Below, one piece after another: positions 15,782 to 63,547 of a DNA stretch of 64,000 nucleotides. The stretch lies in NCBI GenBank assembly GCA_021604525.1, contig BQJD01000014.1, forward strand, positions 4,256-68,255, read 5' to 3'. Under the pieces are notes generated by a model, which saw only the letters and a program-made list of their open reading frames with translations, was not told the DNA's origin and did not search any database. Numbering within the stretch: position 1 is the first letter of the stretch; the number at the start of each line of letters is the position of its first letter. The stretch is from a marine bacterium B5-7 (lineage in GTDB: Bacteria; Pseudomonadota; Gammaproteobacteria; Arenicellales; CAJQKF01). The translations under genes were made by a program, and so were the position numbers.

Positions 15782-15872
15782 CAATGACTATGTATTAGTT
15801 CGGTAGGCTATGCTGACCATTGCCGTACACCTTAAAGGAGCCAAGGCGTTGCCGGATTTGCGAATTGTCAAC

Positions 15873-17258: not shown

Positions 17259-17306
17259 AAGCCCAAAAAGGTTTTCATCCGGACCTTAGGATTGTGATTC
17301 ATGAGG

Positions 17307-23124: not shown

Positions 23125-23262
23125 CTACCAATCAAAGTATCGCTTCAAGCCTGCTATAAGATGCGTGCCTGATTCCTGTGTTTGAAATGCGGACCACAGG
23201 TTATTGGTCAGAGCCCGCAAGTTGCATTTGAGACAACTCGATTAATGGGATGGGATTTTGAT

Positions 23263-30131: not shown

Positions 30132-30222
30132 ACCCTCGCCCATCAGACGCTAATACTTTAATAGGCCCTAACATAATTACGTCTAAATTATTGATGTCCC
30201 AAGTGTTCGTGAAGTAAACCCA

Positions 30223-30585: not shown

Positions 30586-30586
30586 C

Positions 30587-31138: not shown

Positions 31139-31235
31139 AATTGGTAGAAACAATCTGTGGATGGGAGGTTACGGGTCGAGTTCACCGTACCCGTGATTAA
31201 TTAGATAACAAAACAGCAACGCTGGACTGAAGACT

Positions 31236-33419: not shown

Positions 33420-33470
33420 CCTGGAATTGACCAGTTTGGCCGTACATCCGGGTAATCGAAGGCAGGCTGC

Positions 33471-36400: not shown

Positions 36401-38735
36401 TCTCGTCGATGCTTTTCGCGAGGAAGCGCAAGAAATTCTCGAACGATTTGGTCAGTCGCTCGACCAATGGCGCGAGGGTTCTGCTCTCACCGTTATACTG
36501 CCGGCTATGCGCCGTGAGCTGCATACCTTCAAGGGCGGAGCTCGCACCGTTGGCTGGACCGCATTAGGCGATCTTGCGCATAACACCGAAACCCTGCTGG
36601 AGTTCGATCAGGATGTTAAATCCGGCCCTGATCGCGTCTTTACGCTCGTCCAGGACGTGTACGATCTCGCTGCATCGGTCATTGCATCCAATGAGGAAGT
36701 GCTGCGTAACGATATCGAACGACTCAATCACAACATTCTCGATTTCGATGTCAGCGCGTCGCCTGCTATTGAAACGGTTGATGAAGACGATGCCCGTCGC
36801 CAGCATGACGAATTGTTGAACGTCGCCCTTGATGCAGCAACCGTGGCCGGCAAGTCTCTTGACGAAAAATTGCCAACCTCACCGGCGGTGCTGCTTGAAT
36901 CCGATGCGCGCGTTGTTCGTGTCAATACGGAACTGCTGGATGAACTGGTTAATCATGCCGGTGAGGTAAGTATTCTGAGATCCAGGCTGCAGCAGCAGAT
37001 CTCCACGGTGAAATCCAATCTTGGTGAATTGGGCATGACCGTAAGGCGGTTTCGCGAACAGCTTCGCGATCTTGAGATCGAGTCGGAAGCGCAGATGCTG
37101 GCAAGCAACGAGCGTCTTCGCGAAGATGGCGCGAGTGCGTTTGATCCCCTCGAACTCGACCGTTTCAGCCGTTTGCAAACGGTATCGCGACAGCTTGGCG
37201 AAAGCCTCGGTGAGTTGGCATCGATCCAGGCCGGTATCTCCGAGTTTGCGGGTGATGCGGAAAATACCCTGCAACAGCAGGCACACTTAAGCGAAAGCTT
37301 GCAAGATGGATTGCTGCGAACCCGAATGGTGCCGTTCGCAAGTATTGTCCCAAGGTTGCGTCGACTGACACGACAAACGGGGCGTGAACTCGGCAGCGCG
37401 ATTAATCTGGAAGTACGCGGCGAGAATGTCGAAGTCGACCGTAAAGTGCTCGAGCAAATGAGCGCTCCATTCGAACACATGATCAGAAATGCGATCTCCC
37501 ACGGTATCGAAGAGGCATCTGTGCGTACTGCTGCCTCTAAACCTGAGATTGGCACTATTGTCATGTCGCTTGGTCAGGATGGTAACGATATTGTTATCGA
37601 AATTAGCGACGACGGACGTGGCCTCGACCTCAAAGCAATCGAAGACAAGGCTCGCAACCTGGGTCTGTTGAAGCCGGACCAGCCTCTCGGTGAAGACGAC
37701 CTCATGCGTGTTCTGTCTGCACCGGGCCTGTCTACAGCCAGCAGCCTCACTCGGGTATCCGGCCGCGGTATCGGCATGGATGTGGTAAGCGACATGATTC
37801 GCCAACTTGGTGGATCCATCAATGTCGAGTCGAAGACCGGTAAAGGCGTGACCTTCACTTTACGGCTTCCGGTCACTCTCGCAGTCAGTCATGCGCTGCT
37901 GGTTTATGCCGGTGAGCAAATGTTTGCCGTGCCGGCACGACTTATTGTCAATGTACTGCGTATTCCCGCCGATGATATCGAAGCTTCCGATGCCGAGGCG
38001 GATGGTTATACCTACTATAACGACAGGCGTATCCCGGTACTCAATCTGGCGCATAGGCTGGGTTTGCCATTCCGCGGTTCTGATCGCAATATTGCGCAGG
38101 TCATTGTCGTGCGTTCTGCACGTGGAGAGATCGGCTTGTGGGTAGAATCAATATCAGACACGCGTGAAGTGGTGGTCAAGCCACTCGGCAAGATGCTGCA
38201 GTCAATATCCGGAATAGGTGCGGTTACCTTGCTCGGCGACGGCAGTATCGTATTGATCCTCGATATCCCCGGCCTGTGGCAAAAGCGTACGTTGAGCGTG
38301 ACAGCCGACAGTTATGCAACAGCGCCACGACAATCTGACAATCTCACTGTCATGGTAGTCGATGATTCCATGACGGTAAGAAACGTAATGGGCCGCGATC
38401 TGCAGAACAGCGGCTACGAGGTGATCCTGGCGAAGGACGGCGTAGACGCTATCGAGCAATTGCGTCACACCGTGCCCGATATTCTGCTGGTGGATCTTGA
38501 AATGCCGCGTATGGACGGTTTCGAGCTTACCCGACGGGTGCGTGCCGATAACCAGCTTGGAACTGTGCCGATTCTCATCATTACCTCACGAGCGGGTACG
38601 CGGCATCGTGACCAGGCGATGGGTTTAGGCGCCAATGGATACATGAGTAAACCCTATCGTCTCGATGAACTGGTGAAATCGATCAATTCGTTAACAAATA
38701 ACCCGACACAAATGCCCTTGGAGACTGTTCACTGA
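33471..38735 (+). CDS. chpA: ChpA-type multi-Hpt hybrid histidine kinase (CheA family) with C-terminal receiver
   Basis: 1754 aa with Hpt-like motifs at about nt 33616 (THLHQIYGT), 35538 (FHTLKGGG), 36015 (AHTLRGVF) and 36518 (LHTFKGGA). HATPase N/G boxes (HMIRNAISHG, DDGRGLD, GRGIGMD), a CheW-like domain and a REC (MVVDDS...DLEMPRMDG...SKP). Confidence 0.9.
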   Translation: MMSTLPTIDSGTLGWVKSEIEDTAAQARSLLDQFDSDASDRSLMRMCSTHLHQIYGTLTMVELDGAARLISESEQLTQKIAEGKIEWQAQTGSTLRRSLDDLTSYLEGLQSPPVPSPLQLIESINRVRATREAEAISELELFAPDLSARPPDPTSQVKFESSLFLELANDLRIHFERALLTLLRNSEDRDAINEISRVLKHLLSIDRRASLRQLWWIASGISEVLLDGSVVMNDEIRQIFAQVNEQLKRLQEKSQSSRRRAPPDDLIKRALLVLARSGGTGPTVSSIRERFGLDDWIRKESSGAMPDINQLSSGLTIFSSESEVDLRQAQSLLARYFSPQGGNTQTLERLATRLQSLKQAAERNNINIMARLLNALLTIVDGLGNKKIDDLDAASMQIASSLLFIEDSTTGVRPGVEWHAQAEATISSLKSLGTNTDDLSVKDSGVHEVAVGTATPARGMGDDKVIRAAASEVSGELQYVEHTLEKVATGEVPSANLKSVEPHLKRIEGTLEILEHADVAALAEQLRLSLHQLVEDDAVDTRGLDALAMAVGTISLCAEQIGKGSNLNDLASTITRAKTELQSLGGTQAAGLGEDRSSVHLDLVRGSANKSNNRSDDLALDFDDGLELDTDPLVTANLPLADVVDDQEDELVTVFFEEAREIDEEITSAKHRWQEEPDNFETLKALRRGFHTLKGGGRFIGAGSIAELSFVAEDLLNSVLEGDVIPSSGIHSFVDKVHQRLTQLIHARDIGSDLDLTPWQARAGALKNASVESADIDTDSALDINLSEPRTMRPAVGIADTRQASDTTEVDSVFRDELDGHIQVIVDSVADARQSFPNWQPPDVLLRTAHTLRGVFRSVGLNACARMADSLDDLLNFQRKSTLSIQEVDLVLLDQSGRLIRFATGKLGAELKLGAEVGLQFDELAGALTQRLRFLEAAAPTTVSMAQPPPVPADVAHGTATSQVVSLTLKDDDADIDLVDAFREEAQEILERFGQSLDQWREGSALTVILPAMRRELHTFKGGARTVGWTALGDLAHNTETLLEFDQDVKSGPDRVFTLVQDVYDLAASVIASNEEVLRNDIERLNHNILDFDVSASPAIETVDEDDARRQHDELLNVALDAATVAGKSLDEKLPTSPAVLLESDARVVRVNTELLDELVNHAGEVSILRSRLQQQISTVKSNLGELGMTVRRFREQLRDLEIESEAQMLASNERLREDGASAFDPLELDRFSRLQTVSRQLGESLGELASIQAGISEFAGDAENTLQQQAHLSESLQDGLLRTRMVPFASIVPRLRRLTRQTGRELGSAINLEVRGENVEVDRKVLEQMSAPFEHMIRNAISHGIEEASVRTAASKPEIGTIVMSLGQDGNDIVIEISDDGRGLDLKAIEDKARNLGLLKPDQPLGEDDLMRVLSAPGLSTASSLTRVSGRGIGMDVVSDMIRQLGGSINVESKTGKGVTFTLRLPVTLAVSHALLVYAGEQMFAVPARLIVNVLRIPADDIEASDAEADGYTYYNDRRIPVLNLAHRLGLPFRGSDRNIAQVIVVRSARGEIGLWVESISDTREVVVKPLGKMLQSISGIGAVTLLGDGSIVLILDIPGLWQKRTLSVTADSYATAPRQSDNLTVMVVDDSMTVRNVMGRDLQNSGYEVILAKDGVDAIEQLRHTVPDILLVDLEMPRMDGFELTRRVRADNQLGTVPILIITSRAGTRHRDQAMGLGANGYMSKPYRLDELVKSINSLTNNPTQMPLETVH

Positions 38736-47346: not shown

Positions 47347-47491
47347 GGAATGTTCAGGTTCTATGATTCAGGGCTTAACAAGTCCAAATGGGTAGCATGT
47401 TCACCAATGGTGATATGGTAAATAAGTATTAAATAATATATTAATGATTCTTCGGTTCCAGTTCAGTTTCAATTACCCGGGAGAATTTCTC

Positions 47492-48073
47492 ATGAAGCGA
47501 AACCATTTAATTCCAATCCTCGTCAGTCTGGGGCTATTTGTGGCTCCCACCTTGAGTATTGCTCAAACGGATTCAATAGCCGGGCAAATGCCGGGCGGTT
47601 ATGATTTTTCTGCATTGTCGCAAATGTTTGCCGTGCCCCAAGGCGTACCACAACTCAACATGTCGACACCGAACGGTATGGCCGCGTTCATGAACCCGAC
47701 GCTATACGCGCAGATGATGAATCCGGCATTCTATACACAGATGATGTCACCAGGCTTTTATACCCAATTCATGAATCCGCAAAACTGGATGTCATGGTTT
47801 AATCCATCTGCTTATTCATCGTGGGTAGATTCGGCAACGTATCTGCAGGCGATGAATCCGATGTCCTATATGCAATTCATGAATCCCCTGACTTACTTGC
47901 AGTGGGCTAACCTCAACAATTACATGGGCTATGTGAATCCATCGACTTACACGCAGTGGCTGAATCCGGGCGCCTATCAATTTGGCAACACGTCAACGTC
48001 AACCGGTCAGGCTACCGACGCCAACTGGTTTGATCCCGCGGCCTGGTCTAAAGAAGTCGAAAAGACGGAATAG
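47492..48073 (+). CDS. Secreted nonapeptide-repeat protein (NPxxY repeats), unknown function
   Basis: GGGAGA RBS 7 nt upstream of the ATG. Sec signal peptide MKRNHLIPILVSLGLFVAPTLSIAQ, then 11 tandem 9-aa repeats. Paralogous to the ORFs at 57408 and 58067. Confidence 0.8.
   Translation: MKRNHLIPILVSLGLFVAPTLSIAQTDSIAGQMPGGYDFSALSQMFAVPQGVPQLNMSTPNGMAAFMNPTLYAQMMNPAFYTQMMSPGFYTQFMNPQNWMSWFNPSAYSSWVDSATYLQAMNPMSYMQFMNPLTYLQWANLNNYMGYVNPSTYTQWLNPGAYQFGNTSTSTGQATDANWFDPAAWSKEVEKTE
47687..47983 (+). repeat. 11 tandem 27-nt (9-codon) coding repeats, consensus [FMW]-M-N-P-x-x-Y-x-Q
   Basis: Read directly: FMNPTLYAQ MMNPAFYTQ MMSPGFYTQ FMNPQNWMS WFNPSAYSS WVDSATYLQ AMNPMSYMQ FMNPLTYLQ WANLNNYMG YVNPSTYTQ WLNPGAYQF. 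Confidence 0.9.
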
Positions 48074-48173: not shown

Positions 48174-48557
48174 ATGTATGGATTTTTTAAGACGTTAGAC
48201 GGTACCGTAGACGACGTCAAAGCGGCGGTGGTCAATGCACTCGCTGAAGAAGGCTTTGGCGTGTTATCCGAGATTGATGTTAAAGCGACTCTTAAAAAGA
48301 AGCTCGGTATTGATCGGCTCCCATATATTATTCTCGGTGCCTGCCAACCTGCCTTGGCGAATCAGGCAATCGAAGCGGAACCTGACATCGGTCTGCTTCT
48401 GCCCTGTAACGTGCTTGTACGGGAGGAAGTTGACGGTAGCGTATCGGTAGGGTTTATCGATCCTGAAGCCATGCTCAGTGTGACCGGTCGCGACGACCTG
48501 AAGCCGTTCGCGAATGAAGTGCGAAATCTCCTCGAACGGGTTCGTGACAGGCTTTAA
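48174..48557 (+). CDS. DUF302 domain protein (no signal peptide)
   Basis: 127 aa. GFGVLSEIDVKATLKKKLG...YIILGACQPALANQAI...LLPCNVLVRE matches my recollection of the DUF302 pattern. Confidence 0.78.
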   Translation: MYGFFKTLDGTVDDVKAAVVNALAEEGFGVLSEIDVKATLKKKLGIDRLPYIILGACQPALANQAIEAEPDIGLLLPCNVLVREEVDGSVSVGFIDPEAMLSVTGRDDLKPFANEVRNLLERVRDRL

Positions 48558-48616: not shown

Positions 48617-49195
48617 ATGCAACTTGAAGAGGTCAAACCCGGGAGTTTTATTTACCGCCGTCGACAGGCGCTGGAAAACAATTTTTGTGATGATGTTGTT
48701 GCACGATTCGAGCATGCTGTGGACGAACAATATCCTGGACGAATTGGCCAGGATCAACAGAGCCATGCCGACATCAAGAAAACGGTTGATCTTCGGGTAT
48801 CCGGTAAACCGCAGTGGGCGGATGTCGATTCGACGCTGTTTGAATCGTTGCGGAATTCGTTGTCAGAAGTTTGCGCGGTACATCCGTTTTTCTCAAGCAA
48901 TTCATTCAAGGATCATGGATACAATCTGCAGCGATACAGGGCAGGTGAATATTATCGCTGGCATGTAGATGCCGGCCCCGGGCCTTTCAGTCAGAGACAG
49001 CTCGTCGCCATCTGGTATCTCAATAATGTCGATGGACCAGGCGGTGAAACCGAGTTTGCGTTTCAGGATATCAAGATTAAGCCAACTGCCGGCGACCTGC
49101 TGTTATTCCCGCCGTTCTGGACCCATGTTCACCGCTCAATCGAGCTTCAAGCGGGTAGTAAGTATATTGCCACGACCTGGGTATGTTTTAGCTGA
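48617..49195 (+). CDS. 2OG-Fe(II) oxygenase, prolyl-4-hydroxylase-like
   Basis: 192 aa with the HxD facial triad WHVDAG, distal His in FWTHVHRS and a basic 2OG-binding residue in SKYIATTW. Confidence 0.78.
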   Translation: MQLEEVKPGSFIYRRRQALENNFCDDVVARFEHAVDEQYPGRIGQDQQSHADIKKTVDLRVSGKPQWADVDSTLFESLRNSLSEVCAVHPFFSSNSFKDHGYNLQRYRAGEYYRWHVDAGPGPFSQRQLVAIWYLNNVDGPGGETEFAFQDIKIKPTAGDLLLFPPFWTHVHRSIELQAGSKYIATTWVCFS

Positions 49196-50563: not shown

Positions 50564-51043
50564 TCAAATAAACAACGATACATCTGACTCGCCGGCATGT
50601 TCGAAGTAGGTTGCAGCGCCACCCAGCTCGATCTCGTCGATGAAGTCGCTTCGTTTCATATCAAACAGATCAATAGTCATCTGGCAGCCGATCAACTTCA
50701 CATCGGCTTCGATGCACAAGGACCTCAAATCTTCGATAGAAGCAACACCCTTGCTTTTTATCTTGTTCTTCATCATTGAAGTCATCATGGTTTCCATACC
50801 TGGAAGGGCGGTACCGAGAACCGGAAACCATTTATCCATCCCAAGCGGCATGGGCATGCCCGGGTTCCCCAAGGGACTCACTTTAAGATTCAGTTTTTTT
50901 CGTAGTAATTGTAGTCCGTAAAAGGTAAAAAACATGGTCGTTTCATACCCCAATGCCGCGGCAGTCGATGCGAGAATGAAAGGCGGGTAGGCCCAGTCGA
51001 GCGTGCCTTTGGTTGCGATTATCGTAAGTTTTTTCTGATTCAT
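50564..51043 (-). CDS. DsrE/DsrF-like sulfur-relay family protein (soluble, DsrE3-like)
   Basis: Begins MNQKKLTIIATKGTLDWAYPPFILASTAAALG. GGAGA RBS upstream of the ATG at 51043. Immediately downstream of tusA. Confidence 0.78.
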   Translation of the reverse strand: MNQKKLTIIATKGTLDWAYPPFILASTAAALGYETTMFFTFYGLQLLRKKLNLKVSPLGNPGMPMPLGMDKWFPVLGTALPGMETMMTSMMKNKIKSKGVASIEDLRSLCIEADVKLIGCQMTIDLFDMKRSDFIDEIELGGAATYFEHAGESDVSLFI

Positions 51044-51086
51044 GGAAGTATCTCCAGCGACCATGGAGGTCGCACCGGTAAAGTCT

Positions 51087-51320
51087 TCAGGCAGACTTCT
51101 TCATCAGGAAATGAAATTCACCATTGGCTTCTGTGGATTCCATTAACTCATTCCCTGTCTGGTTAGCGAATGCTTCAAAGTCTTTTACCGAACCTGGGTC
51201 GGTTGCGATGATCTTCAGAACCTGTCCACCTTCAAGACCATTCAGTGCCTTTTTTGCGCGCAGAATGGGTAGTGGGCAGTTCAATCCACGTGCGTCGAGT
51301 TCTTGATCAAAATCAGCCAT
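51087..51320 (-). CDS. tusA: TusA/SirA-family sulfurtransferase
   Basis: 77 aa with LDARGLNCPLPILRAKKAL (CPxP active-site Cys). Confidence 0.88.
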   Translation of the reverse strand: MADFDQELDARGLNCPLPILRAKKALNGLEGGQVLKIIATDPGSVKDFEAFANQTGNELMESTEANGEFHFLMKKSA

Positions 51321-53363: not shown

Positions 53364-53691
53364 CGTAAACCACAGTTTGGGCTCAAGAAATACTTGTCAA
53401 TTAACAAGCCTCCTTTAATCAATTATCTAATGCAGATCGAACGACCGGGATCAAATCTCACTAATACGACTATAAGTAAATACGATTAATGATGAGTGGA
53501 AGGGTTGAAGTCGGCACTTGCCAAAGGCGAGTACATGTGGTCTGATTATTTTGGAATGTTACAGTTACGCAACCGATAGATATGATAATCCGGTGCGTAT
53601 ACGGTTTCGACATTTTGGTTCGAGACCGTAAATACGGTTAGAAAACGTGCTGCTACATCACGAAAAATCACATGACAGGAGGATATTTCTT

Positions 53692-54114
53692 ATGCTGAGG
53701 CTCAGAAAAACCATCACCGCTATCGGCCTTGCCAGCGGCTTGATGATCTCTATGAGTTACGCGCCGCAATTATTCGCGCAAACTTATCCAAACGATTCGG
53801 GTTGCAAGAAAATCGAGAACCCGACCGTAGAGCAGAAGGGCTGGTGTGTTGCTATCGATCGACGCAAGGGCAATTGCCTGGCCTGTCATACGATTATGGT
53901 TGATCCCTGGCCTGAAGGTTTCCCCCCGGGCGGCAATGTCGCGCCCGCGCTGGTATCAATGAAAGACCGGTTCCCTGATCCTGCCAAACTGCGCGCGCAG
54001 ATCTACGACTCAACAGCCATGAATCCGAATACCCGCATGCCGCCATTTGGCAAGCACAAGATGTTGACGGACGAACAGATCGATGAAATCGTGGCGTTTT
54101 TAATGACGATCTAG
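53692..54114 (+). CDS. soxX: Sulfur-oxidation c-type cytochrome SoxX
   Basis: AGGAGG RBS upstream, signal peptide, GNCLACH haem motif and MPPFG. The start is trimmed from 53647 to the ATG at 53692. Confidence 0.85.
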   Translation: MLRLRKTITAIGLASGLMISMSYAPQLFAQTYPNDSGCKKIENPTVEQKGWCVAIDRRKGNCLACHTIMVDPWPEGFPPGGNVAPALVSMKDRFPDPAKLRAQIYDSTAMNPNTRMPPFGKHKMLTDEQIDEIVAFLMTI

Positions 54115-54220
54115 CGGTCATTAATGCATATGTTTGAGTGTTGGTATGTTCATTGAGCAACCGTAATCAAGTGCGTGTTGCTCACACCCAAAACGAAATT
54201 TAACAGGAGAAAACTCAGCC

Positions 54221-54685
54221 ATGAAACGTAGAACTTTCGTTAAAGGCTCAATGGCAAGCGTCGCCTTGGCAGTCGCTGCTGGTGCCGGTTTATTACATCC
54301 GCGACGGGTGATGGCCGCCAGTTGGCCAGAAGCGGCATTGAGCGCGGATAATGTAGACGCGGCGCTCCAGGCCGCATTCGGAACGACCGAGATGACCGAC
54401 AGCGACGACGTGACTATCAAGGCGCCACTGCAGGCAGAAAATGGTGCGGTTGTGCCGATACAGGTAACAACGACTCTCGATGCTGACACGATTGCCGTCA
54501 TCTCGGAAAAAAACCCGGTACCGATGGTCTCCATGCTTAATGCAGGTGATGGCGTCGGCGGCGTATATAGCGTACGTATCAAAATGGGTGAAACCTCGCC
54601 AGTGCATTGCGTGGTTCGTTCCGGCGACAAGCTGTTTCGCAAAACCCAGGAAATCAAGGTGACGGTTGGCGGTTGCGGCGGATAA
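54221..54685 (+). CDS. soxY: Sulfur carrier protein SoxY
   Basis: Twin-arginine signal (MKRRTFVKG) and the diagnostic C-terminus VTVGGCGG. Confidence 0.94.
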   Translation: MKRRTFVKGSMASVALAVAAGAGLLHPRRVMAASWPEAALSADNVDAALQAAFGTTEMTDSDDVTIKAPLQAENGAVVPIQVTTTLDADTIAVISEKNPVPMVSMLNAGDGVGGVYSVRIKMGETSPVHCVVRSGDKLFRKTQEIKVTVGGCGG

Positions 54686-54761
54686 CTTTATAAGCCTCTG
54701 CCGAGATCGTAAAACCTTATTGGGTTTCCACTAACAGAATTTATATTACGCGAGGTTTTAT

Positions 54762-55073
54762 ATGGCTACCAAGATGAAAATAAAGACCGGCTCAACAGGC
54801 GGTTACGACGTTCTGGTGCTGGCTAAACATCCCATGGAAACCGGTAACCGAAAGGATGAGAAAACCGGTGAGTTGGTACCTGCACACTTCATTCAAACCA
54901 TGGTATTCAGTGTAAACGGCGCCGAGGTGGCACAGGCTAATCTTAGTCAGGGTGTCTCCGCCAACCCATTGGTCGGTATCAACATTCAAACTGCCAAGGC
55001 GGGTGATACAGTATCCGTCAACTGGACCGACAATAAGGGCGAATCTGATAGCGTTGAAGGCAAGGTCGCCTAG
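54762..55073 (+). CDS. soxZ: SoxZ
   Basis: 103 aa with MKIKT...VLAKHPMETG...HFIQ typical of SoxZ. It directly follows soxY. Confidence 0.9.
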   Translation: MATKMKIKTGSTGGYDVLVLAKHPMETGNRKDEKTGELVPAHFIQTMVFSVNGAEVAQANLSQGVSANPLVGINIQTAKAGDTVSVNWTDNKGESDSVEGKVA

Positions 55074-55206
55074 GGTATTGAGTAAGGATAACGAGTAAAA
55101 ATCTTAAAAATTAACAGCTATTTACATAGCTATTCGATATTTCAACAATATGTGACCGGAGTCGCCCCGTGACTTTGAATTTACATAAATTAAAGGAGGA
55201 GTTTGT

Positions 55207-56052
55207 ATGCGCAAACTACTAGTGACCGCGATAACAACCGGTTTTGCGGTATTCAGCTTTGCGGCTTATGCCACGCCCCAGGAAGATATCGAAGCGTTTC
55301 AGGGATACTTCAAGGAACGCTTTTCGGATGTTCCCCTTGAAGCTTATAACGATGGTGTAAACGCCTTGCCGCAATACGCAGAACGCCGAGAAAATTGGGT
55401 GCTTCTCATGGAATTCCCGCCGTATGAGGAACAAGTCGAAGTTGGCCGTCAGGAGTGGGCCAAACCTTTTGCTAACGGCAAAACATTCAACGATTGCGCA
55501 AAAGACTGGCCGCCTGCGAACGTGTATCCGGTCTACGATCCTGCAAGTGATGATCTGCGAACCATTGTTGGAGACATTAATGCATGTCTCAAGGCAAACG
55601 GTGAGGAGCCCATCAAGAATGTCAAAAATGGCAAGATGGCTCGTCTGGTCATCGCCTATAAAGAGCAGTTTAACGGTGAGCCAATCAATGTCGATATCTC
55701 CGATGCTGGTGCCGTTAAATGGTATGAGAAGGGTAAACAGTTTTACTGGGCCAAGCGTGGCCAGCTTAATTTTTCCTGTGCCGATTGCCACGTACATTCA
55801 GCCGGACTGAGTGTTCGCGGCGACGTGCTGAGTGCGGGCCTTGGACACACGACTGGCTTCCCTGTTTATCGGACAAAGTGGGCGCTGGCGGGTAAGCCGC
55901 TTGGAACAATCCATCGCCGTTACGGTGGTTGCAACGGCCAGGTGCGGGCTCAGGCATTCAAACCCCAGGGGCCGGAGTACAAAGCGCTTGAATTATATGA
56001 AGCGGTCATGAACGCGGGTATTCCTCTGAAGGTTCCTAGCCAGAGGCAGTAA
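55207..56052 (+). CDS. soxA: Cytochrome c SoxA (single CxxCH)
   Basis: Signal peptide, FSCADCHV haem motif and a conserved Cys-ligand region RRYGGCNGQ. Confidence 0.9.
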   Translation: MRKLLVTAITTGFAVFSFAAYATPQEDIEAFQGYFKERFSDVPLEAYNDGVNALPQYAERRENWVLLMEFPPYEEQVEVGRQEWAKPFANGKTFNDCAKDWPPANVYPVYDPASDDLRTIVGDINACLKANGEEPIKNVKNGKMARLVIAYKEQFNGEPINVDISDAGAVKWYEKGKQFYWAKRGQLNFSCADCHVHSAGLSVRGDVLSAGLGHTTGFPVYRTKWALAGKPLGTIHRRYGGCNGQVRAQAFKPQGPEYKALELYEAVMNAGIPLKVPSQRQ

Positions 56053-56075: not shown

Positions 56076-56109
56076 GAAAGCCCGGCCATTCGCCGGGCTT
56101 TCTTGTCTT
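56076..56109 (+). terminator. Rho-independent terminator after soxA
   Basis: 11-bp perfect GC-rich stem GAAAGCCCGGC / GCCGGGCTTTC with a 5-nt loop, followed by TTGTCTT. Confidence 0.75.
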
Positions 56110-56257
56110 AAAGATACCGGTGTTAGCGTTACGCGATATTTTTTCTGCTACAAATCAGTGATTGCGAACGAATATTCATTGCCTTATCTGCAAACGATCC
56201 TTTGATTTTCTAAAGGTGGTTAAAGTACCTGATATTCCGCGAGATCAATCATCTTCC

Positions 56258-57247
56258 ATGACTCAAAACCGCGAGCAAATCATAGACGACGGCGCGCTAC
56301 GATTTGACGACACGCCACAGATTCGAACCATTAACCACCCCGACTGGTTCAAGGTTGGATTCCTTGATCTTCGTGAGGACTTAAGTGAGGCGATTAACTC
56401 GGGTAAAAGCGCGCTTGCCGTTTATTTTGGCCAGGAAAATTGCGCGTATTGCAAAGCGTTGATGGAGGTAAATTTCACTCTCACCGATGTTGTTGATTAC
56501 ACCCGGAAAAATTTCGATGTGGTTGCAATTGATATCTGGGGTGCCGCCGAGATGGTTAACATCGACGGCGTGGAGCTGACTGAACACGAGTTCTCAATCG
56601 CCAATGAAACCAATTTCACACCGTCGTTTTTGTTCTACGATGCAAACGGTGAGCTTGTTTTCCGCTTGAGGGGGTATTACCCACCTTACAGGTTTCGTGC
56701 CGCGCTTGAATATGTTGCCGACGGTCACTATCGTGACGAATCGTTTCGAAGCTACCTCGAGCGGGCGCATCCGCCACCCAAGTTTGACCTCGAGGAATTG
56801 AACGAGGAAATATTCTTTGACTCACCACCATTTTTCCTCGATCGATCCCGGTTTCCTGCAAGTAAGCCTCTGGTGGTATTTTTCGAGCAACGTAATTGTC
56901 ATGCCTGCGATGTACTGCATTCCGACCCGTTATCGGATGAAAGCACGCGTACCATGCTGGAGTTCATGCAGGTAGTCCAACTCGATATGTGGAGCGATAC
57001 GCCAGTGTTAACGCCAACCGGGGATCGTCTGACAGCACGTCAATGGGCGGAGCAGCTTGATATTTCTTATGCCCCGACACTGGTTTTTTTCGATGAACGG
57101 GGAAGGGAGATTATTCGTATCGGCTCCGTCGTACAGCAATACAGGCTTGGGCGGGTACTTCAGTATGTCGCCGAGTCAGGCTATAAAAGCGGTTTGAATT
57201 ATCAGCAGTGGCACGGGCTTCGTTCTGCTACCCCGGGTACATCTTGA
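56258..57247 (+). CDS. Tandem thioredoxin-fold protein (two CxxC motifs)
   Basis: Two repeated Trx-like halves: FGQENCAYCKAL and FEQRNCHACDVL. No signal peptide at any candidate start; the start is uncertain (track ORF from 56162). Confidence 0.68.
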   Translation: MTQNREQIIDDGALRFDDTPQIRTINHPDWFKVGFLDLREDLSEAINSGKSALAVYFGQENCAYCKALMEVNFTLTDVVDYTRKNFDVVAIDIWGAAEMVNIDGVELTEHEFSIANETNFTPSFLFYDANGELVFRLRGYYPPYRFRAALEYVADGHYRDESFRSYLERAHPPPKFDLEELNEEIFFDSPPFFLDRSRFPASKPLVVFFEQRNCHACDVLHSDPLSDESTRTMLEFMQVVQLDMWSDTPVLTPTGDRLTARQWAEQLDISYAPTLVFFDERGREIIRIGSVVQQYRLGRVLQYVAESGYKSGLNYQQWHGLRSATPGTS

Positions 57248-57407
57248 CAATTTGCCAACGCGATAAAATGATTTTTGATCGCCAGCAAAAAGCCGGATAC
57301 ACCGTAATATGCGTAATGAGAGATACTAAAGGTATGCAATACATTATTGTGCCTTTGATCAGGTATCAATAAACACCCTCACTCATACAGCAACAGAGGC
57401 AACTCAA

Positions 57408-57956
57408 ATGAAAATATTCTCAACCATAGGGCTTTTGCTCGCATTGACGACTTTCAACACCGGCACCCATGCACAAATGCCGATGCAAATGCCGAATCTG
57501 GGTGGGTTCTTCGGTGGCCAGCAACAGGCCAATCCGTTTGCCGGACAGCAAGCCAACGCGTTTACCAACATGATGGCACCCATGGGCATGATGGGTGGTG
57601 CCAATCCCATGATGATGATGGTTAATCCGGCTAACTGGCTTAATCCTAATGCCTACGCCCAGTTTGCAAACCCCATGAGTTACATGTCGATGATGAACCC
57701 GATGAGCTACATGGCAATGATGAATCCGATGACTTATCTGCCCATGATGAATCCGAACTCATACATTCAGATGATGAACCCAGCGCTTGGCCTTGCCGGC
57801 GTACAGCCCATGGGAAACATTGCGGCTATCGACCCCAACACATACTGGCAAGTGCTGGTGCAACTACTCGGTGGTATTCATGGTCAACCTGAAACCAGCG
57901 AAGGTTTTCTCGACAAACTCAAGGAAATTGGAGAAAAGGTCGCACCTGAACAATAG
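57408..57956 (+). CDS. Secreted Met-rich NPxxY nonapeptide-repeat protein, paralogue of 47492
   Basis: Signal peptide MKIFSTIGLLLALTTFNTGTHA. Repeats are NPNAYAQFA NPMSYMSMM NPMSYMAMM NPMTYLPMM NPNSYIQMM. About 26 Met in about 160 mature residues by my count. Confidence 0.8.
   Translation: MKIFSTIGLLLALTTFNTGTHAQMPMQMPNLGGFFGGQQQANPFAGQQANAFTNMMAPMGMMGGANPMMMMVNPANWLNPNAYAQFANPMSYMSMMNPMSYMAMMNPMTYLPMMNPNSYIQMMNPALGLAGVQPMGNIAAIDPNTYWQVLVQLLGGIHGQPETSEGFLDKLKEIGEKVAPEQ
57603..57782 (+). repeat. Coding repeat tract, N-P every 9 codons (five regular units preceded by irregular ones)
   Basis: N-P dipeptides occur at residues 66, 73, 79, 88, 97, 106, 115 and 124 of the ORF. Confidence 0.85.
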
Positions 57957-58066: not shown

Positions 58067-58522
58067 ATGAAGTCTTTCAAGGTCACGTACATAACGGGAG
58101 TTTGCCTGTTGGCAAGTTCATTTCTGCCTGCCGCCGTATCCGCCCAGAATCAATCTGCCAATTCTGCAATCCACAGTTTGCAGCAGACTCTGAGTACCGA
58201 TGCCTATGCCGGTATTTTAAAGGCGATGGTAAATCCGGCAACTTTAAAAAACCCGGTAGTCGTGTGCGCTCAATGTCATTCCGATGAGGATGCGGCACGT
58301 TACAGTAAAGTACTTGGGCCAATGCTGCAGATGGCCAATCCACTTAACTGGGTTAATCCAATGGCCTATGTCAACATGGCGACACCGATAATGGATCCGG
58401 AAACCTATGCCGAGTGGTACAAGGCATACACCAAAAAATATGGTGGCCTGTTGGGTTACAACCCGGACACTGCTGCCGGGGAGACAACAGCCGACCCTGA
58501 AACCAAGGATCCCACAGAGTAG
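58067..58522 (+). CDS. Secreted protein with one CxxCH haem-c motif plus NPxxY-type repeats
   Basis: Signal peptide ending AAVSAQ. CAQCH lies at nt 58265-58279, followed by MANPLNWV NPMAYVNMA TPIMDPETYAEW. Confidence 0.75.
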   Translation: MKSFKVTYITGVCLLASSFLPAAVSAQNQSANSAIHSLQQTLSTDAYAGILKAMVNPATLKNPVVVCAQCHSDEDAARYSKVLGPMLQMANPLNWVNPMAYVNMATPIMDPETYAEWYKAYTKKYGGLLGYNPDTAAGETTADPETKDPTE

Positions 58523-58637
58523 TAGTTTTGGCTGACAATATGCGCAGTGTCTATGGCTGGCTCGTATCGGCTATTGGTGGGTTGTAGCCATTTTGAGACA
58601 GGTTCCAGGAACAGACAAAAAACAGGAGGATGCTAAA

Positions 58638-59369
58638 GTGAAGAGAGTCATCGGTTTCATCTTCGCTCTTATCGTTTCGGTGAGTTTGTGTGCCCAGGCA
58701 CAACAGGACAGCTTCAGTGTGCCTGAAGGGGCAAGTGATGAAGTGCGCGATGCATTACAGCCACATCCAGAACTTGGTGATCGGTTGTTGTCCGATCAAC
58801 CGGACGAGATTCAGGAGATCATGCGTGCGCAACTCGTAGAGCAGAGTAATCGACCATTGCCGCCAGTCCCGGCCGCGACCAAGAAGCAGTTGTTTGATCA
58901 GCTTACGGCAGTGAGTGGTTTGGGAATGCGTGACCTGTTTAACTTCATGACATCCAAGAAAAAGGTTGCTGAGGGTATTACATTCGATGAGGTCATAGAG
59001 GCCATGTTGATCAAGGCGAATGAAGTGAATTTCAAGAATGTTGGACACAACTTGTTCTGGAAAGATGCCTCCGCAGTGACAGGTGTTCCGGCACTGCGAG
59101 TCGAGATTCTACAATTCTGCGACGCTGTGGTCGGCCGTCGGATGCTCGATTTCAGCCCGGAGTTTTCGATTTTTATTCCCTGTCGTATTACCGTTATGGA
59201 AGATGCCACTGGTGATATCTGGCTAATGACAATGGACTGGGATGTCAGTTGGCTGGCAAATGCGTGGCATCCGGACTCTGAACTGAGCGATCAGTTAAAA
59301 GCCGATGCGGTACGTATTCGTGATTCGATGGAAGCCATTATGCAAGCTGGTGCTAATGCTGAGTGGTAG
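58638..59369 (+). CDS. Secreted DUF302 domain protein with an N-terminal extension
   Basis: AGGAGG RBS 8 nt upstream of the GTG at 58638. Signal peptide VKRVIGFIFALIVSVSLCAQA. The C-terminal half (ILQFCDAVVGRRMLDFSPEFSIFIPCRITVMEDATGDIWLMT) is DUF302-like. Confidence 0.7.
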   Translation: MKRVIGFIFALIVSVSLCAQAQQDSFSVPEGASDEVRDALQPHPELGDRLLSDQPDEIQEIMRAQLVEQSNRPLPPVPAATKKQLFDQLTAVSGLGMRDLFNFMTSKKKVAEGITFDEVIEAMLIKANEVNFKNVGHNLFWKDASAVTGVPALRVEILQFCDAVVGRRMLDFSPEFSIFIPCRITVMEDATGDIWLMTMDWDVSWLANAWHPDSELSDQLKADAVRIRDSMEAIMQAGANAEW

Positions 59370-59427: not shown

Positions 59428-60543
59428 TTACTGGCCACCGCATGCAATTCGTAACTCGTCGCATACCGGGTCGAGTACAGGTGCCAGTTGCTTACGCATC
59501 AACGAGCCAACCGCGGAGCTTTTTACACAATAGTCGCGGATGAGTGAATCGCCTGCCATCGATAAAAATCGTAGCGCGTAAACTCTTTTTTTCAGTTCAA
59601 CCGGAAAAACACCAAAGCCTGGCGAGGAGTGTTCAGTCAGTCGTTGGTGTATCTCATCAATACTGGCGCATTCTTCGCCAGGTGGCCGTAGTGGAGCCAG
59701 GGTTGATGTAATAACTCCAAGGCAGGCGCTGACGATTTCCTGGTCGGCTGCCTGTGTCAGTACTTTCTCGGTGACTCTGCAAAATTGTTGTCCGGGCGTA
59801 TCGAGTAACAGGGGCATCAAGTTCCCGAAGTCATTCCCGGTATCAACTGACGATGTGCCCCGGTTCCATGTGAGTGACGGATCGGTGCCGTGATTTCTGT
59901 ATTGGCCGGTTTTCATAACCGGTGGAAGATTAAGGGGTCGCGCCATCAGGAAACCAAGCAGGATACTGGTTTTTCTTTGGGCCCGCCGCCACAGTGAATT
60001 GACGATATCGCCATCAATACTTGCTACTTTGAGAATGAGTGCCGTATCCCGCGCCACCATTAAATATTCAGTTTCAAATGGCAGGAATTCAAGGAGATAG
60101 TCAGCGACCTCCTGACCGATCGACGCTTCGCAAATACGGTCATGTTCGAGTAGAAAACGCGCTGTTTCCGATGACTGATAGGCCCACCAGACTTTGGCCG
60201 CCGTTGTCGGATCAAGTGTCGTTGCCGCGGCGACTGCAATCACCGCTTCCGGTTCCCCCAGCTTTAACAGATCGTTCAAGCGGTTACTCTTGACTTGCCG
60301 CATTCTCGTCCAGCGCGACAGAAATCCTGGATAGCCTGAAGGTGAGTCGATTGCCTGGCTGGACAACAGTTCCCGCACCTTTTTAAGGTAGCGTTGGTTT
60401 TGTCCAGCCACATTCAAACGTACCATGTGTTCGGTATCTTCCCCGAGTCCGTACACCGTCATGGTCGCTTCGTCGATGCGAATGGCATCGGAGCGGGCGA
60501 TAAGAACCTGTAGACGCAGGGCATCCTCGGCATTCAGTTCCAT
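59428..60543 (-). CDS. Hypothetical cytoplasmic protein (371 aa) ending in CDELRIACGGQ
   Basis: Long ORF with balanced composition and no motif I can name. Its size and context are compatible with what is reported for DsrS, but I cannot verify similarity. Confidence 0.62.
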   Translation of the reverse strand: MELNAEDALRLQVLIARSDAIRIDEATMTVYGLGEDTEHMVRLNVAGQNQRYLKKVRELLSSQAIDSPSGYPGFLSRWTRMRQVKSNRLNDLLKLGEPEAVIAVAAATTLDPTTAAKVWWAYQSSETARFLLEHDRICEASIGQEVADYLLEFLPFETEYLMVARDTALILKVASIDGDIVNSLWRRAQRKTSILLGFLMARPLNLPPVMKTGQYRNHGTDPSLTWNRGTSSVDTGNDFGNLMPLLLDTPGQQFCRVTEKVLTQAADQEIVSACLGVITSTLAPLRPPGEECASIDEIHQRLTEHSSPGFGVFPVELKKRVYALRFLSMAGDSLIRDYCVKSSAVGSLMRKQLAPVLDPVCDELRIACGGQ

Positions 60544-60687
60544 CGGCCTTGCCTGTGTAATGACGCACCACCACGATAGGGGGCGCTAATGGAGATATTA
60601 GAAATCACTAAAGGCGGCTGCTGTTCTTAAATCAAATGAATTGAGATAATACCTGAGTTGTGTATCACTTATCTCAGAGGAATTATC

Positions 60688-60882
60688 GTGAACGAGGCTT
60701 ACTACAAAACCGTTGATGAGCTTGAAAAAATGGGCGTTGATGCTGACTATATCAAAGGCTGGATGGGTGGATTTTTAGGAAATCCCCATCGTGAGGAGCA
60801 GCGTGTAACCGATGCGTATACGGCAGGTTATGAAGACGGCCAGAGTCAAACAACCAGCAAAGCCGAACAGTTCAAGCATTAA
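60688..60882 (+). CDS. Small hypothetical protein (64 aa from the GTG)
   Basis: AGAGGA RBS 7 nt upstream of the GTG at 60688. Hydrophilic. The track ORF starts at 60658. Confidence 0.4.
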   Translation: MNEAYYKTVDELEKMGVDADYIKGWMGGFLGNPHREEQRVTDAYTAGYEDGQSQTTSKAEQFKH

Positions 60883-60967
60883 TCAGCAAGCTGAGTAACC
60901 GAATCCTGAAAGGAAAGGTTGTAGCAAATTGGGTATTGATCGATCCGTTATTCACTGATTGACGGTG

Positions 60968-61570
60968 TTACTCCGGGGGATTCATATTGGACATGACGTT
61001 CGCCGTACCAAAAAGACTATCCATACCGTTTTTAAGTTCGAGCACCGCCTCCGGGGCATCGATTTCCATCACCTGATCGATCACCCAGCGGTTGGCCTGG
61101 GTGTCCCCCATGAGGTCCTGGGCATGTCTGCCGAGGCCTCGCATCATCGTGTAACCGGGTTGGTTGCTGTCAAAACCGTAGGCGGAATATTCTTCGATAC
61201 GGTTGTTGACAAGTTCGATGAATCGGCTGCTGTAGTCCGATCCATGACCATAGACATCTTCGAGATTGCGCTGATAATGGCGTGCCGCCTGTTGCGCTAA
61301 CGTGCTCACAAACGCTGCACGCGCATCTGCATCAAGGGATGTGAAAGAAAGCCGGTCGGCAACATGTATGAGAAAGCAAAGATATTCAGCAAGTACGCCG
61401 GTTCGCTGGTCGTCGTCTTCATAGTCGAAGTCTTCGCGATGCAGGTTCCTGGTTTTGTCGAGAGCAATTTGCCATGCTATGTATGCAAGGGCGGTGGCGT
61501 TTTCTTCTAGCGTGACATTACTTTTTGAGTCCCGCCACTTACTGCGTACTCTCAGGTGCTTGTTGGACAT
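60968..61570 (-). CDS. Hypothetical protein (200 aa)
   Basis: Uninterrupted ORF with helical-looking, balanced composition and no recognised motif. The antisense ORF at 60959..61300 looks like a shadow. Confidence 0.55.
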   Translation of the reverse strand: MSNKHLRVRSKWRDSKSNVTLEENATALAYIAWQIALDKTRNLHREDFDYEDDDQRTGVLAEYLCFLIHVADRLSFTSLDADARAAFVSTLAQQAARHYQRNLEDVYGHGSDYSSRFIELVNNRIEEYSAYGFDSNQPGYTMMRGLGRHAQDLMGDTQANRWVIDQVMEIDAPEAVLELKNGMDSLFGTANVMSNMNPPE

Positions 61571-61675
61571 GTTTAAATAGTGAGGCGATTATGGCAATAC
61601 ATCACGCGACCTGTTTTCCTTATTGAACAGCGCATGCTAGTTTATCATGCAGATTACCTTAAGCTGGTTTAAAAG

Positions 61676-62713
61676 ATGCACCCCGCAGAATCCCGCCTGA
61701 TATCCGAAGTGCAGTACAACTGCGACGTATCCGATGCGCGCTTCGCCGGCAATTATACGATGTGCGTGTACTTGTTAAAGATGCGTGAATACTATCGATG
61801 GCGTCATGGGTTCGGCTTCGCTGAAAATCTGTCGATGAGCGACGTCGGTGAATGGGTTCAGCAAACTGAAAGCCTGTGGGAAACTCTGGAAGACAGGCAG
61901 CATACACCGCTGATTGTCGATGGTACTTCATGCGATGTCTTTGATGATGAACGTATAAATCAACGGTTGCCTGACCGATGTCTGTTTAGCAGTGGAATCG
62001 GACGATTCGGCAAGCCGGTATTCGTTTTGGCGGAACTTGTCGACGTCAGGCATGTGGATGGCATGACCGTGCACATCGCCGGCCGTGAGTTTGCCAGGGA
62101 GCTGTCAGCACCGCCGGCCATGATCAGACAGAACCGACTATTTATTCGTCGGGAAAGTCTTGAGAGAATGCTGTGGGAGACTGTCGAGGAATGGCGCTGG
62201 CATCGGCGACCAGGGCCCATGGCCAACGTGGTTGCACACTATGATTTCGATCGTGATGAATCAAAGGCATTGTCTGATCTGCTCAATGATCAGTTGGAGC
62301 AAATGCTGCTACATGAAGTCGGTGAGTTTCGTGCCGGTCAACTGCTTGGCGATGACTGGGACAAGTTGATACTTGAACATGCCGGCAGTCAGGTTGAAAC
62401 GATCGCGCGCGCCATACGCGACTGTCTTGCCGACTGCCTGGAAGTTATTCCGCAACTTGCTGAATCGTCCCGCCGAGAATTATTGGACTTTTATATTGCC
62501 GTGTTGACACCGCTGCGTCGGGAGATGTTTCCATCAATTATTAAAGCGTATCACCAATGGCTCGATGACGGATCGCTGGGTTCTATCATCGATGTTGCCG
62601 AGAACGGTCGGCAACATTTTGAGTCCCTGGCGCGTGAACTCCTTGAATTGCATCGTAACGGATTGTTGAGCGATGCCCTTTACATGCCTCATTTTCGCCA
62701 ACAAGCGTTATAG
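61676..62713 (+). CDS. Hypothetical protein (345 aa)
   Basis: Uninterrupted ORF, soluble, no recognised catalytic motif. Divergent from the 200-aa ORF. Confidence 0.6.
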   Translation: MHPAESRLISEVQYNCDVSDARFAGNYTMCVYLLKMREYYRWRHGFGFAENLSMSDVGEWVQQTESLWETLEDRQHTPLIVDGTSCDVFDDERINQRLPDRCLFSSGIGRFGKPVFVLAELVDVRHVDGMTVHIAGREFARELSAPPAMIRQNRLFIRRESLERMLWETVEEWRWHRRPGPMANVVAHYDFDRDESKALSDLLNDQLEQMLLHEVGEFRAGQLLGDDWDKLILEHAGSQVETIARAIRDCLADCLEVIPQLAESSRRELLDFYIAVLTPLRREMFPSIIKAYHQWLDDGSLGSIIDVAENGRQHFESLARELLELHRNGLLSDALYMPHFRQQAL

Positions 62714-62875
62714 CAGTAAGGGCAGATAAGTTATTCCCGGTTACACCAGCAGCACCTCTGTAATAGCAAAACTGCTTAAGCGCACGTTTACACTATACTG
62801 CCTGGGTGGACATCTCGTTGTATAGCGCTGTCCAACAAAGTATTTGAACAACCTGTCATACCGTAGTATCAGAAA

Positions 62876-63547
62876 ATGCTCGTGACCATAGAAAAGTTGA
62901 TATCGCCGCAAGAGGTCATGGAGGTTCGACGTATCCTTGATGAGGCGACTTTTGTATCGGGACGTGTCAGCGCTGGCAAGCGGGCCGCTGCAAGGAAAAA
63001 AAATTCAGAAATTCCTGTCGGCGCGAATTCGCTTGATTCGCTCAACCGGATAGTGATGGGTGCATTGGTGCGTAATGAAACATATCGTCTGGCGACCTTG
63101 CCACTTAAAGTCGCCGCTCCATTTTATGCACGTTATGTTTCCGGTATGTACTACGATTCACACATTGATGATCCGGTGATGGGAGACGGTCCACGATATC
63201 GATCCGATGTATCGATCACCATTTTCTTGAATGCGCCGGAGGAATACCAGGGTGGGGAATTGTGTATTGATACTTCCTTTGGCGAACAGCGGATCAAGCA
63301 AAGCGCCGGTAGCGCGGTTTTATATCCATCGTCGACCCTTCACCGTGTTGATGAAGTGACAGGTGGTGAGAGGCTGGTTGCTGTGACCTGGCTGCAAAGC
63401 ATGGTGCGCAGTGAAGCTCAGCGCGAGCTGCTGTATAAATTGGCCATGGCCCGTGATCAACTGTTTTGTGAACTTCCTGATAGCAGCGCTTGCGCCACGG
63501 TCGAACAGACCTATGTCAATCTTGTGCGAATGTGGAGCGAGGTATAG
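62876..63547 (+). CDS. Fe(II)/2OG-dependent PKHD-type hydroxylase (PiuC/YbiX-like)
   Basis: 223 aa with HIDDPV (HxD), STLHRV (distal His) and RLVAVTW. The N-terminus MLVTIEKLISPQEV is typical of the family. Confidence 0.83.
   Translation: MLVTIEKLISPQEVMEVRRILDEATFVSGRVSAGKRAAARKKNSEIPVGANSLDSLNRIVMGALVRNETYRLATLPLKVAAPFYARYVSGMYYDSHIDDPVMGDGPRYRSDVSITIFLNAPEEYQGGELCIDTSFGEQRIKQSAGSAVLYPSSTLHRVDEVTGGERLVAVTWLQSMVRSEAQRELLYKLAMARDQLFCELPDSSACATVEQTYVNLVRMWSEV

Follow-up and report, generated by a model that had tools for sequence, protein, structure and literature searches.

The methionine-rich ORF and its repeat array

We analyzed a 64,000-nucleotide stretch of the genome of the marine bacterium B5-7 (hereafter, the window) and, within it, the open reading frame (ORF) at positions 57408..57956 of the forward strand. 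The ORF starts with ATG, comprises 182 codons, and has a Shine-Dalgarno-like AGAGG motif ∼10 nt 5′ of its start codon. It encodes a predicted secreted, methionine-rich protein with an NPxxY nonapeptide repeat, which we named MetNPY; the protein is 100% identical to DHS20C01_19410, a hypothetical protein of the unclassified gammaproteobacterium “marine bacterium B5-7.” The NP-punctuated, methionine-rich repeat marks a conserved periplasmic accessory set of sulfur oxidation genes. This set comprises an exported DUF302 protein and a small monoheme protein with a CxxCH motif, joined in many genomes by a YeeE/YedE-like sulfur importer, and it adjoins soxXYZA (without soxCD), fccAB, and the DsrE2-TusA genes.

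In the window, soxX, soxY, soxZ, and soxA (53647..56052, + strand) lie upstream of MetNPY, and the cluster contains no soxCD. A strong terminator-like hairpin (56076-56102) is located 3′ of soxA, and a gene for a double thioredoxin-fold protein with two CxxC motifs (56162..57247, +) separates soxA from MetNPY. The gap 5′ of MetNPY holds a sigma-70-like promoter match (TTGACA-17-AATGAT, 10/12; 57244..57272, +). This is weak evidence, being a consensus match only, and the count of promoter-like sites was no greater than in shuffled sequences. Downstream of MetNPY by 110 bp is the gene for a secreted protein of 151 aa (58067..58522, +), the third NPxxY-family ORF in the window, in which an invariant CAQCH heme c motif is followed by NPLNW, NPMAY, and DPETY units. 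This CxxCH protein presumably attaches heme. A gene for a long exported DUF302 protein (58593..59369, +; Pfam PF03625, E = 3.6e-11) with two conserved cysteines (FCDA...IPCR) follows 636 bp downstream of MetNPY.

A Sec-type signal peptide was read from the sequence at residues 1-22 (MKIFSTIGLLLALTTFNTGTHA; 57408..57473, +). It has the n-h-c layout and ends in a THA|Q cleavage site of the AxA-like, small-x-small kind, and both the layout and the site are kept in orthologs. We infer a periplasmic location for the mature protein. The lack of cysteine excludes a lipoprotein and also a covalent sulfur (persulfide) carrier, and the lack of an RR motif excludes a Tat substrate. The leader that follows the signal peptide (residues 23-72; 57474..57623, +) is free of charge and rich in Gly, Gln, Met, and Phe (QMPMQMPNLGGFFGGQQQANPF...NMMAPMGMMGGANPMMMMV). 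In relatives, it is expanded into long MMNPMxMM or MGMPG tracts.

The mature protein (160 residues, 17.5 kDa) contains 26 Met (16.3%), 17 Pro, 17 Asn, 16 Gly, 16 Ala, 14 Gln, a single His, and no Cys. An earlier sequence-only reading had described a signal peptide, a Gly/Gln/Met-rich leader, and a mature part with ∼16% Met, one His, and no Cys; the ORF listing, the layout of the sequence, its conservation in orthologs, and the residue counts all confirm this description. With 14.8% Met, MetNPY has the highest methionine content of the 85 window ORFs of at least 100 aa (median 2.8%, standard deviation 2.0). In the mature part, the motifs MxM, MxxM, and MxxxM occur 7, 9, and 4 times, respectively, and there are 9 MM pairs. 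We found no MxH or HxM motif in the protein, which has two Asp in addition to the single His, and, as it lacks Cys, no CxxCH heme attachment motif.

Charge is confined to the C-terminal end of MetNPY. The ten charged residues of the mature protein (∼6%) all fall within its last 41 residues, and Asp-142 is the only one among the first 135 mature residues. The mature protein has a grand average of hydropathy (GRAVY) of −0.13. For residues 23-157, the value is +0.05; this segment has one charge in 135 residues but is rich in Asn and Gln. The C-terminal tail (DPNTYWQ...HG...FLDKLKEIG, ending in ...ETSEGFLDKLKEIGEKVAPEQ; 57831..57953, +) is the sole charged part of the protein, and it resembles the tail of the neighboring CxxCH protein (DPETY..W..KKYG).

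The repeat region spans residues 73-123 (57624..57776, +) and consists of six NPxx(Y/W) units, five of which are exact nonapeptides of the type NPxxYxxMM. In order, the units are NPANWL, NPNAYAQFA, NPMSYMSMM, NPMSYMAMM, NPMTYLPMM, and NPNSYIQMM, starting at residues 73, 79, 88, 97, 106, and 115. The 9-residue spacing claimed in the sequence-only reading is exact for the last five. Its view of the ORF as a second member of an NPxxY repeat family is likewise correct, because in a six-frame translation of the window the NPxx[YW] motifs concentrate in three ORFs only (47444-48073, 57408-57956, and 58067-58522). Neither this concentration nor the outlying methionine content is a product of chance.

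The register of the array is maintained without insertions or deletions in orthologs (64-78% identity) and in more distant relatives (38-48%), and the units of the underlying 27-nt DNA repeat are merely 81-86% identical across 2.4-2.8 copies. These values point to an old array that has probably been maintained at the protein level, and recent slippage of the DNA was ruled out. A family-wide logo, built from 594 units of 131 family-like proteins, reads N(86%)-P(100%)-(A/N/M)-(T/S/A)-Y(84%)/W-(M/A/L)-(Q/A)-(F/M/W)-M(67%), and the 9-residue spacing is by far the commonest among the family repeat units (523 cases). The alternation of Phe, Met, and Trp at position 8, beside a position 9 that is mostly Met, is more in keeping with a hydrophobic, polarizable contact surface than with a fixed metal site.

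In the repeat units of MetNPY, hydrophobicity varies with a sharp period of 3.0 residues rather than 3.6. With this period, N1, S/T4, and x7 fall along a single stripe and Met and Tyr occupy the two remaining stripes, an arrangement that is compatible with short N-capped helices or with an extended chain resembling a polyproline II helix. AlphaFold2, supplied with a 12-sequence alignment, returned a model of MetNPY with a predicted local distance difference test score (pLDDT) of 48, in which each unit is drawn as a 7-residue helix at a pLDDT of about 55-58. The model of the neighboring CxxCH protein reached a pLDDT of 54. A Foldseek comparison of the two models with the PDB gave zero matches. 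Because of the low pLDDT values and the lack of Foldseek matches, no inference about the fold is possible.

Family, gene linkage, and fusions

No curated family (Pfam, NCBIfam) or solved structure (PDB) covers MetNPY. Scans of Pfam and NCBIfam yielded nothing at E ≤ 0.1 except a sub-threshold match to JmjN, which at 20.7 bits is below the cut-off and spurious. The PDB sequence-profile search gave no match either; we regard its top candidate, COMMD10 (E = 0.85), as noise. A word-indexed search recovered 29 relatives, all of them unnamed, and a profile search run exhaustively against 1.84 billion representatives returned 172 clusters at E ≤ 1e-3, with 81 at E ≤ 1e-10. Long matches from this search (P0030, P0090, and P0103; 396-1928 aa) were unrelated 9-residue tandem repeats caught by their periodicity and were dropped. 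Scanning one genome per species yielded 23 loci, all in metagenome-assembled genomes (MAGs) of Gammaproteobacteria, several of which are labeled Arenicellales. The CxxCH neighbor has no relative in Pfam or the PDB and only nine in the word-indexed search. Our literature search found no paper on such a methionine-rich protein or on a methionine-rich extension of DUF302. Judged by its sequence relatives, MetNPY belongs to a real, conserved family that is unannotated.

To the window we added 63 related loci, onto which the window proteins were mapped by tblastn. This set contains 34 distinct Met-type genes, of which 28 were evaluable. A long DUF302 gene lies within 1.5 kb of the Met-type gene in 24 of the 28 evaluable cases and a CxxCH gene within 300 bp in 10. 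A sox gene was found within 5 kb of 10 of the 34. On Arenicellales chromosomes, the genes follow the order soxXYZAB, regulator, MetNPY, CxxCH, DUF302, and a YeeE/YedE-like transporter (PF04143). The gene for the double thioredoxin-fold protein also adjoins the module at three other loci (L014, L016, and L017).

The methionine-rich module also occurs fused to its partners. At loci L027 and L024, a DUF302 protein of 431-447 aa carries a methionine-rich NP-repeat region N-terminal to DUF302, with the overall layout of membrane anchor, acidic linker, methionine-rich NP-punctuated region (...MNPMMQMMAPMMNMMTPMMNPYVYMNPMTMMNP...), and DUF302. Such fusions are common: the 431-aa fusion matched 407 clusters at E ≤ 1e-20, and ∼50 among the 120 matches listed span its full length. 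Examples such as P0268 and P0238 have long MMNPMMGMMNP tracts, as has an example recovered in Tara Oceans samples. The CxxCH protein encoded 3′ of the fused DUF302 contains 22-32% Met, with MMNPAMYMNMMNP or MMNPMMGMMNP tracts. The relative P0018, whose locus has no separate CxxCH gene, ends in the tail of the CxxCH protein (MDPETY...W.KKFG). Because the module elsewhere forms part of its two partners, the window ORF represents its stand-alone form.

Four further lineages share an arrangement in which DsrE2 and a divergent fccB-fccA-tetraheme cytochrome group lie on one side and, on the other, the methionine-rich DUF302 fusion, a CxxCH protein fused to methionine-rich sequence, a YeeE-like transporter (PF04143), soxZ, and soxY follow in this order. 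At loci L067-L069 (positions ∼2200-4900), the fused module divergently adjoins fccB, fccA, and a tetraheme cytochrome of the NapC/NirT type, with genes for an Rrf2-family regulator and a Tll0287-like protein nearby.

We also noticed a copy-number polymorphism in the methionine-rich CxxCH protein, which has 230 aa in one contig (L064, 8101-8793) and 247 aa in another (L065, 8101-8844). The difference is one 17-residue methionine-rich unit; the contigs come from different samples and are otherwise syntenic. Variation of this kind in unit number is typically seen in a spacer or matrix and not in a precise fold.

The paralog NPY1, sulfur trafficking genes, and other features of the window

The paralog NPY1 (47492..48073, +) is encoded ∼9 kb upstream of MetNPY. 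It has ten NPxx(Y/W) units and 9.5% Met in its mature part, and its likely start is the second ATG of the ORF at 47444-48073. A short DUF302 protein of 127 aa without a signal peptide (48174..48557, +) is encoded 100 bp after NPY1. In the relatives L031 and L032, a gene for a diheme cytochrome c of 267-363 aa (CADCH, CASCH) is inserted between the two, which the window genome lacks. Directly 3′ of the short DUF302 gene, here and in L031 and L032, is a prolyl-hydroxylase-like gene of the 2OG-FeII_Oxy_3 family (48617-49195). We considered hydroxylation of the NP repeats by this 2-oxoglutarate-Fe(II) (2OG-Fe(II)) oxygenase, or by a second one at 62876-63547, and rejected it as unsupported. The first enzyme has no signal peptide and the second is of the PKHD/PiuC type; moreover, the link to the repeats is doubtful because a homolog of the 48617-49195 gene persists in L002, where NPY1 is absent.

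The sulfur trafficking genes DsrE2 (50564-51064, −) and TusA (51087-51320, −) lie side by side ∼6 kb upstream of MetNPY and are syntenic in L002 and L032. The window DsrE2 itself has a methionine-rich loop, GNPGMPMPLGMDKWFPVLGTALPGMETMMTSMMKN (7.8% Met), which is kept in L064 and echoes the QMPMQMP leader of MetNPY.

The region 3′ of the long DUF302 gene (59428-63547) is syntenic with L002 (10136-12583) and encodes a 200-aa protein that matches no family, a DUF6866/Sfum_1244-family protein, and the PKHD-type 2OG-Fe(II) hydroxylase; L002 contains no match to a 371-aa protein encoded on the minus strand (59428-60543). A cbb3 oxidase cluster (4278-13378) contains a gene for a CcoI-type copper P-type ATPase on the minus strand beside ccoNOP, ccoG, FixH, and a DsbD_2 protein. 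This ATPase of cbb3 oxidase assembly, ∼50 kb from MetNPY, is the only copper-related gene in the window. At 13390-18845, a radical SAM gene lies between the genes for the polyphosphate kinase Ppk1 and the exopolyphosphatase Ppx. The gene at 174-920 resembles TauE/SafE sulfite exporters, and two ATPases of the PilT/PilU type are encoded at 22090-24372. A chemosensory cluster of the Pil-Chp type (29583-38735) encodes a response regulator, CheW, a PilJ-like methyl-accepting chemotaxis protein, and a 1754-aa ChpA-like kinase with three histidine phosphotransfer (Hpt) stretches. Calvin cycle genes are also present elsewhere in the window.

Candidate functions of MetNPY

Sox systems without SoxCD and flavocytochrome c sulfide dehydrogenase (Fcc) produce periplasmic zero-valent sulfur (S0), and the YeeE-like transporter, DsrE2, and TusA serve the uptake of sulfur into the cytoplasmic oxidation pathway. 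The constant neighbors of the module are all either sulfur producing (Sox without SoxCD, Fcc) or sulfur importing (YeeE-like, DsrE2, TusA). DUF302 is independently tied to S0-forming systems. In Acidithiobacillia without soxCD, a DUF302 gene separates soxA from soxB, and another lies within the sqr1 plasmid operon of Synechocystis. The constant partner of MetNPY is likewise a DUF302 protein in a truncated sox cluster, as in the soxCD-less clusters of Acidithiobacillia and Thiobacillus. However, the reports on the DUF302 proteins of Acidithiobacillia, Thiobacillus, and Synechocystis name no methionine-rich partner or extension, whereas the marine forms add the NP/Met module, either as a separate protein or as a fusion.

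MetNPY has no Cys, its chain is charge-free and rich in Met, aromatic residues, Asn, and Pro, it has no confident fold, and its neighbors make or import sulfur. For these reasons, we propose that MetNPY may act, in concert with the DUF302 and heme proteins, as a sulfur-philic matrix or tether for zero-valent sulfur in the periplasm; we put the probability of this reading at roughly 0.42. MetNPY itself would not be a catalyst. Its repeats, lined with thioethers and aromatic residues, would form a flexible sulfur-philic matrix or coat, which would hold the hydrophobic zero-valent sulfur (S8 or polysulfide) that Sox or Fcc produces, and the protein would co-assemble with the heme and DUF302 proteins through their common repeats. 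It could then be a functional analog of the envelope proteins of sulfur globules or of coats of the apolipoprotein or phasin type. Both the binding of sulfur and the co-assembly with the partners are steps that we infer. For MetNPY, the handling of elemental sulfur appears more likely than that of copper. The sequence-only reading had put a Cu(I)/Ag(I) binder first and had offered a sacrificial antioxidant or a hydrophobic sulfur-contact surface as alternatives. The last of these is the part that gains, on gene context: the neighborhood of soxXYZA, thioredoxin, DUF302, and DsrE2-TusA genes and the fusions of the methionine-rich module seem to favor it.

Two kinds of protein to which MetNPY can be compared are already known, namely exported low-complexity proteins of sulfur oxidizers and methionine-rich periplasmic domains. 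Among the former, the sulfur globule proteins (Sgp) are small and repetitive, with a Sec signal, regularly spaced Pro residues, and several paralogs per genome; SgpA-C are described as “extremely hydrophobic,” SgpD homologs are confined almost entirely to Chromatiaceae, and sulfur globule proteins have been characterized in Chromatiaceae only (PMC10386293). By these described features, MetNPY is like SgpA, SgpB, SgpC, and SgpD of Allochromatium vinosum, and like them it is small, carries a Sec signal, has Pro and aromatic residues at regular intervals, lacks catalytic residues, occurs as several paralogs per genome, and is encoded by a host whose Sox system lacks SoxCD. Five successive units of MetNPY place a Pro and a Tyr at 9-residue intervals. 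A difference is the tight linkage of MetNPY to DUF302 and CxxCH genes, which is not reported for sgp genes. In the uncultured marine Gammaproteobacteria that carry the module, we saw no homolog of the Chromatiaceae globule proteins, although no search was aimed at one. The methionine “bristles” of the SRP54 M-domain and the Gly-Met-rich C-terminal tails of GroEL are flexible segments that provide a malleable hydrophobic surface for the promiscuous binding of non-polar ligands. The MGGM and MMGP tracts of MetNPY relatives are similar to the GGM repeats of GroEL, which is an analogy only, and GroEL and SRP54 differ from MetNPY in compartment, ligand, and architecture.

Several points weigh against a sulfur-philic matrix. 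The function is assigned from gene context and composition, because MetNPY has no detectable homology to anything. MetNPY is Asn/Pro/Met-rich and uncharged but, with its Asn and Gln content and a GRAVY of about 0, not strongly hydrophobic, unlike SgpA-C. The affinity of thioethers for S8 is a chemical supposition. The gene is not known from any cultured organism (23 of the 23 loci of the species-representative scan are MAGs). Some distant members are not located near sulfur genes: P0021 is followed by a class I cytochrome c, P0029 is preceded by a cd1-type protein, and P0026 is accompanied by a CxxCH protein only. Finally, paralogs of the NPY1 type rarely adjoin DUF302 (6 of 23 evaluable), with a long DUF302 gene within 1.5 kb in 3 cases and a short one in 3.

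The proposal can be carried one step further. A thioether “brush” might capture S0 from SoxYZ or FccAB and, together with the monoheme protein and the two-Cys DUF302 protein, activate it and pass it to the YeeE-like importer and on to DsrE2 and TusA. We regard this extended scheme as doubtful.

MetNPY might instead be a scaffold or condensate former only, whose NP/Met “stickers” would gather the CxxCH and DUF302 proteins near the YeeE-like transporter and DsrE2 with no contact to sulfur. The same type of repeat is present in three proteins of the module and fused to two, the leader is similar to FG, Q/N, and methionine-rich low-complexity sequence, P0018 and the CxxCH protein have a common tail, and AlphaFold2 gives no stable fold, all of which would suit such a role. 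However, a scaffold leaves unexplained why the enrichment, which reaches 32%, concerns Met in particular and not hydrophobic residues in general. By sequence, it is not separable from the sulfur-philic matrix, and we consider it unlikely that scaffolding is the whole function.

The lead idea of the sequence-only reading corresponds to a periplasmic Cu(I)/Ag(I) sponge or chaperone, in which Met thioethers and cation-π contacts of Tyr and Trp, as in CusF, would protect or supply enzymes. The methionine-rich domains of CueO are established Cu(I) recruiters; PcoA/CopA, PcoE/SilE, CusF, and the Mets motifs of Ctr1 are further methionine-rich examples, and sulfidic and hydrothermal habitats are rich in metals. 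Like the CueO-type domains, MetNPY is predicted to be periplasmic, with a flexible or poorly ordered chain and dense MxM, MxxM, and MM motifs in the numbers given above. The CueO-type domains, however, sit in or beside copper homeostasis proteins and usually have His or Asp ligands, the Cu5 site of CueO being formed by M355, M441, D439, and D360. In contrast, MetNPY can offer one His and two Asp as co-ligands, has no MxH or HxM pair, and keeps a strict NPxxY nonapeptide register. A comparison with copper-protein hidden Markov models (CopC, CusF, multicopper oxidase, PcoE/SilE, and others) gave no match in Pfam or NCBIfam. No copper homeostasis gene (copA, cusCFBA, copCD, or multicopper oxidase) was found in any context with Pfam-annotated called genes, the constant partners being DUF302, the heme-motif protein, the YeeE-like transporter, DsrE2, Sox, and Fcc. 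In addition, several Met positions swap freely with Phe, Trp, or Leu across the family. Cu(I) binding is chemically plausible but gains no support from the gene contexts. What speaks for copper is the composition of the protein, and we consider a copper-binding role distinctly unlikely.

The antioxidant alternative of the sequence-only reading is disfavored. In this case, MetNPY would be a sacrificial redox buffer. Its exposed Met residues would scavenge oxidants that arise at oxic-anoxic interfaces or around sulfur oxidation in the periplasm, and would afterwards be reduced again. A precedent exists in MrpX of Azospira suillum, a periplasmic methionine-rich hypochlorite scavenger with 20% Met and 44% charged residues that is co-transcribed with yedYZ under SigF. 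Both are small exported proteins with about 16-20% Met, and MetNPY has a signal peptide and no Cys. MetNPY fits this one characterized example poorly, since it is nearly charge-free (∼6%, compared with 44%), has a regular repeat, and occurs in a sox/DUF302 context; no msrPQ/yedYZ-type gene (PF00174, PF01794) was found in any Pfam-annotated context or near MetNPY in the window. A strict 9-residue NPxxY register would also be needless for a sink. We consider this role highly unlikely. Finally, an electron transfer or heme-handling partner of c-type cytochromes, such as a docking protein unrelated to sulfur storage, is scarcely credible. The CxxCH protein, the diheme cytochrome c after NPY1 orthologs, and the cytochromes at the P0021 and P0029 loci speak for it, but MetNPY itself has no CxxCH and a single His, cytochromes are common in sulfur oxidation neighborhoods anyway, and DUF302 is the more constant partner (24/28 compared with 10/28).

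Two questions are open in this field: how periplasmic S0 is held without SoxCD and how it is mobilized into the cytoplasm for rDsr or sHdr. The unannotated gene set described here, consisting of the methionine-rich repeat protein, the exported DUF302 protein, the CxxCH protein, and often the YeeE-like transporter, is placed between S0-producing enzymes and sulfur trafficking proteins. It occurs widely among uncultured marine Gammaproteobacteria, one lineage of which was recovered from Tara Oceans samples. DUF302, which had earlier been noticed in truncated sox clusters, gains concrete partners. Even if the sulfur reading is wrong, a protein with 16-32% Met in a strict NP-punctuated register is an unusual biochemical object. 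If the thioether brush proved true, it would constitute the long-sought route for handing sulfur over from the periplasm to the cytoplasm in rDsr-type oxidizers, in abundant uncultured marine Gammaproteobacteria.

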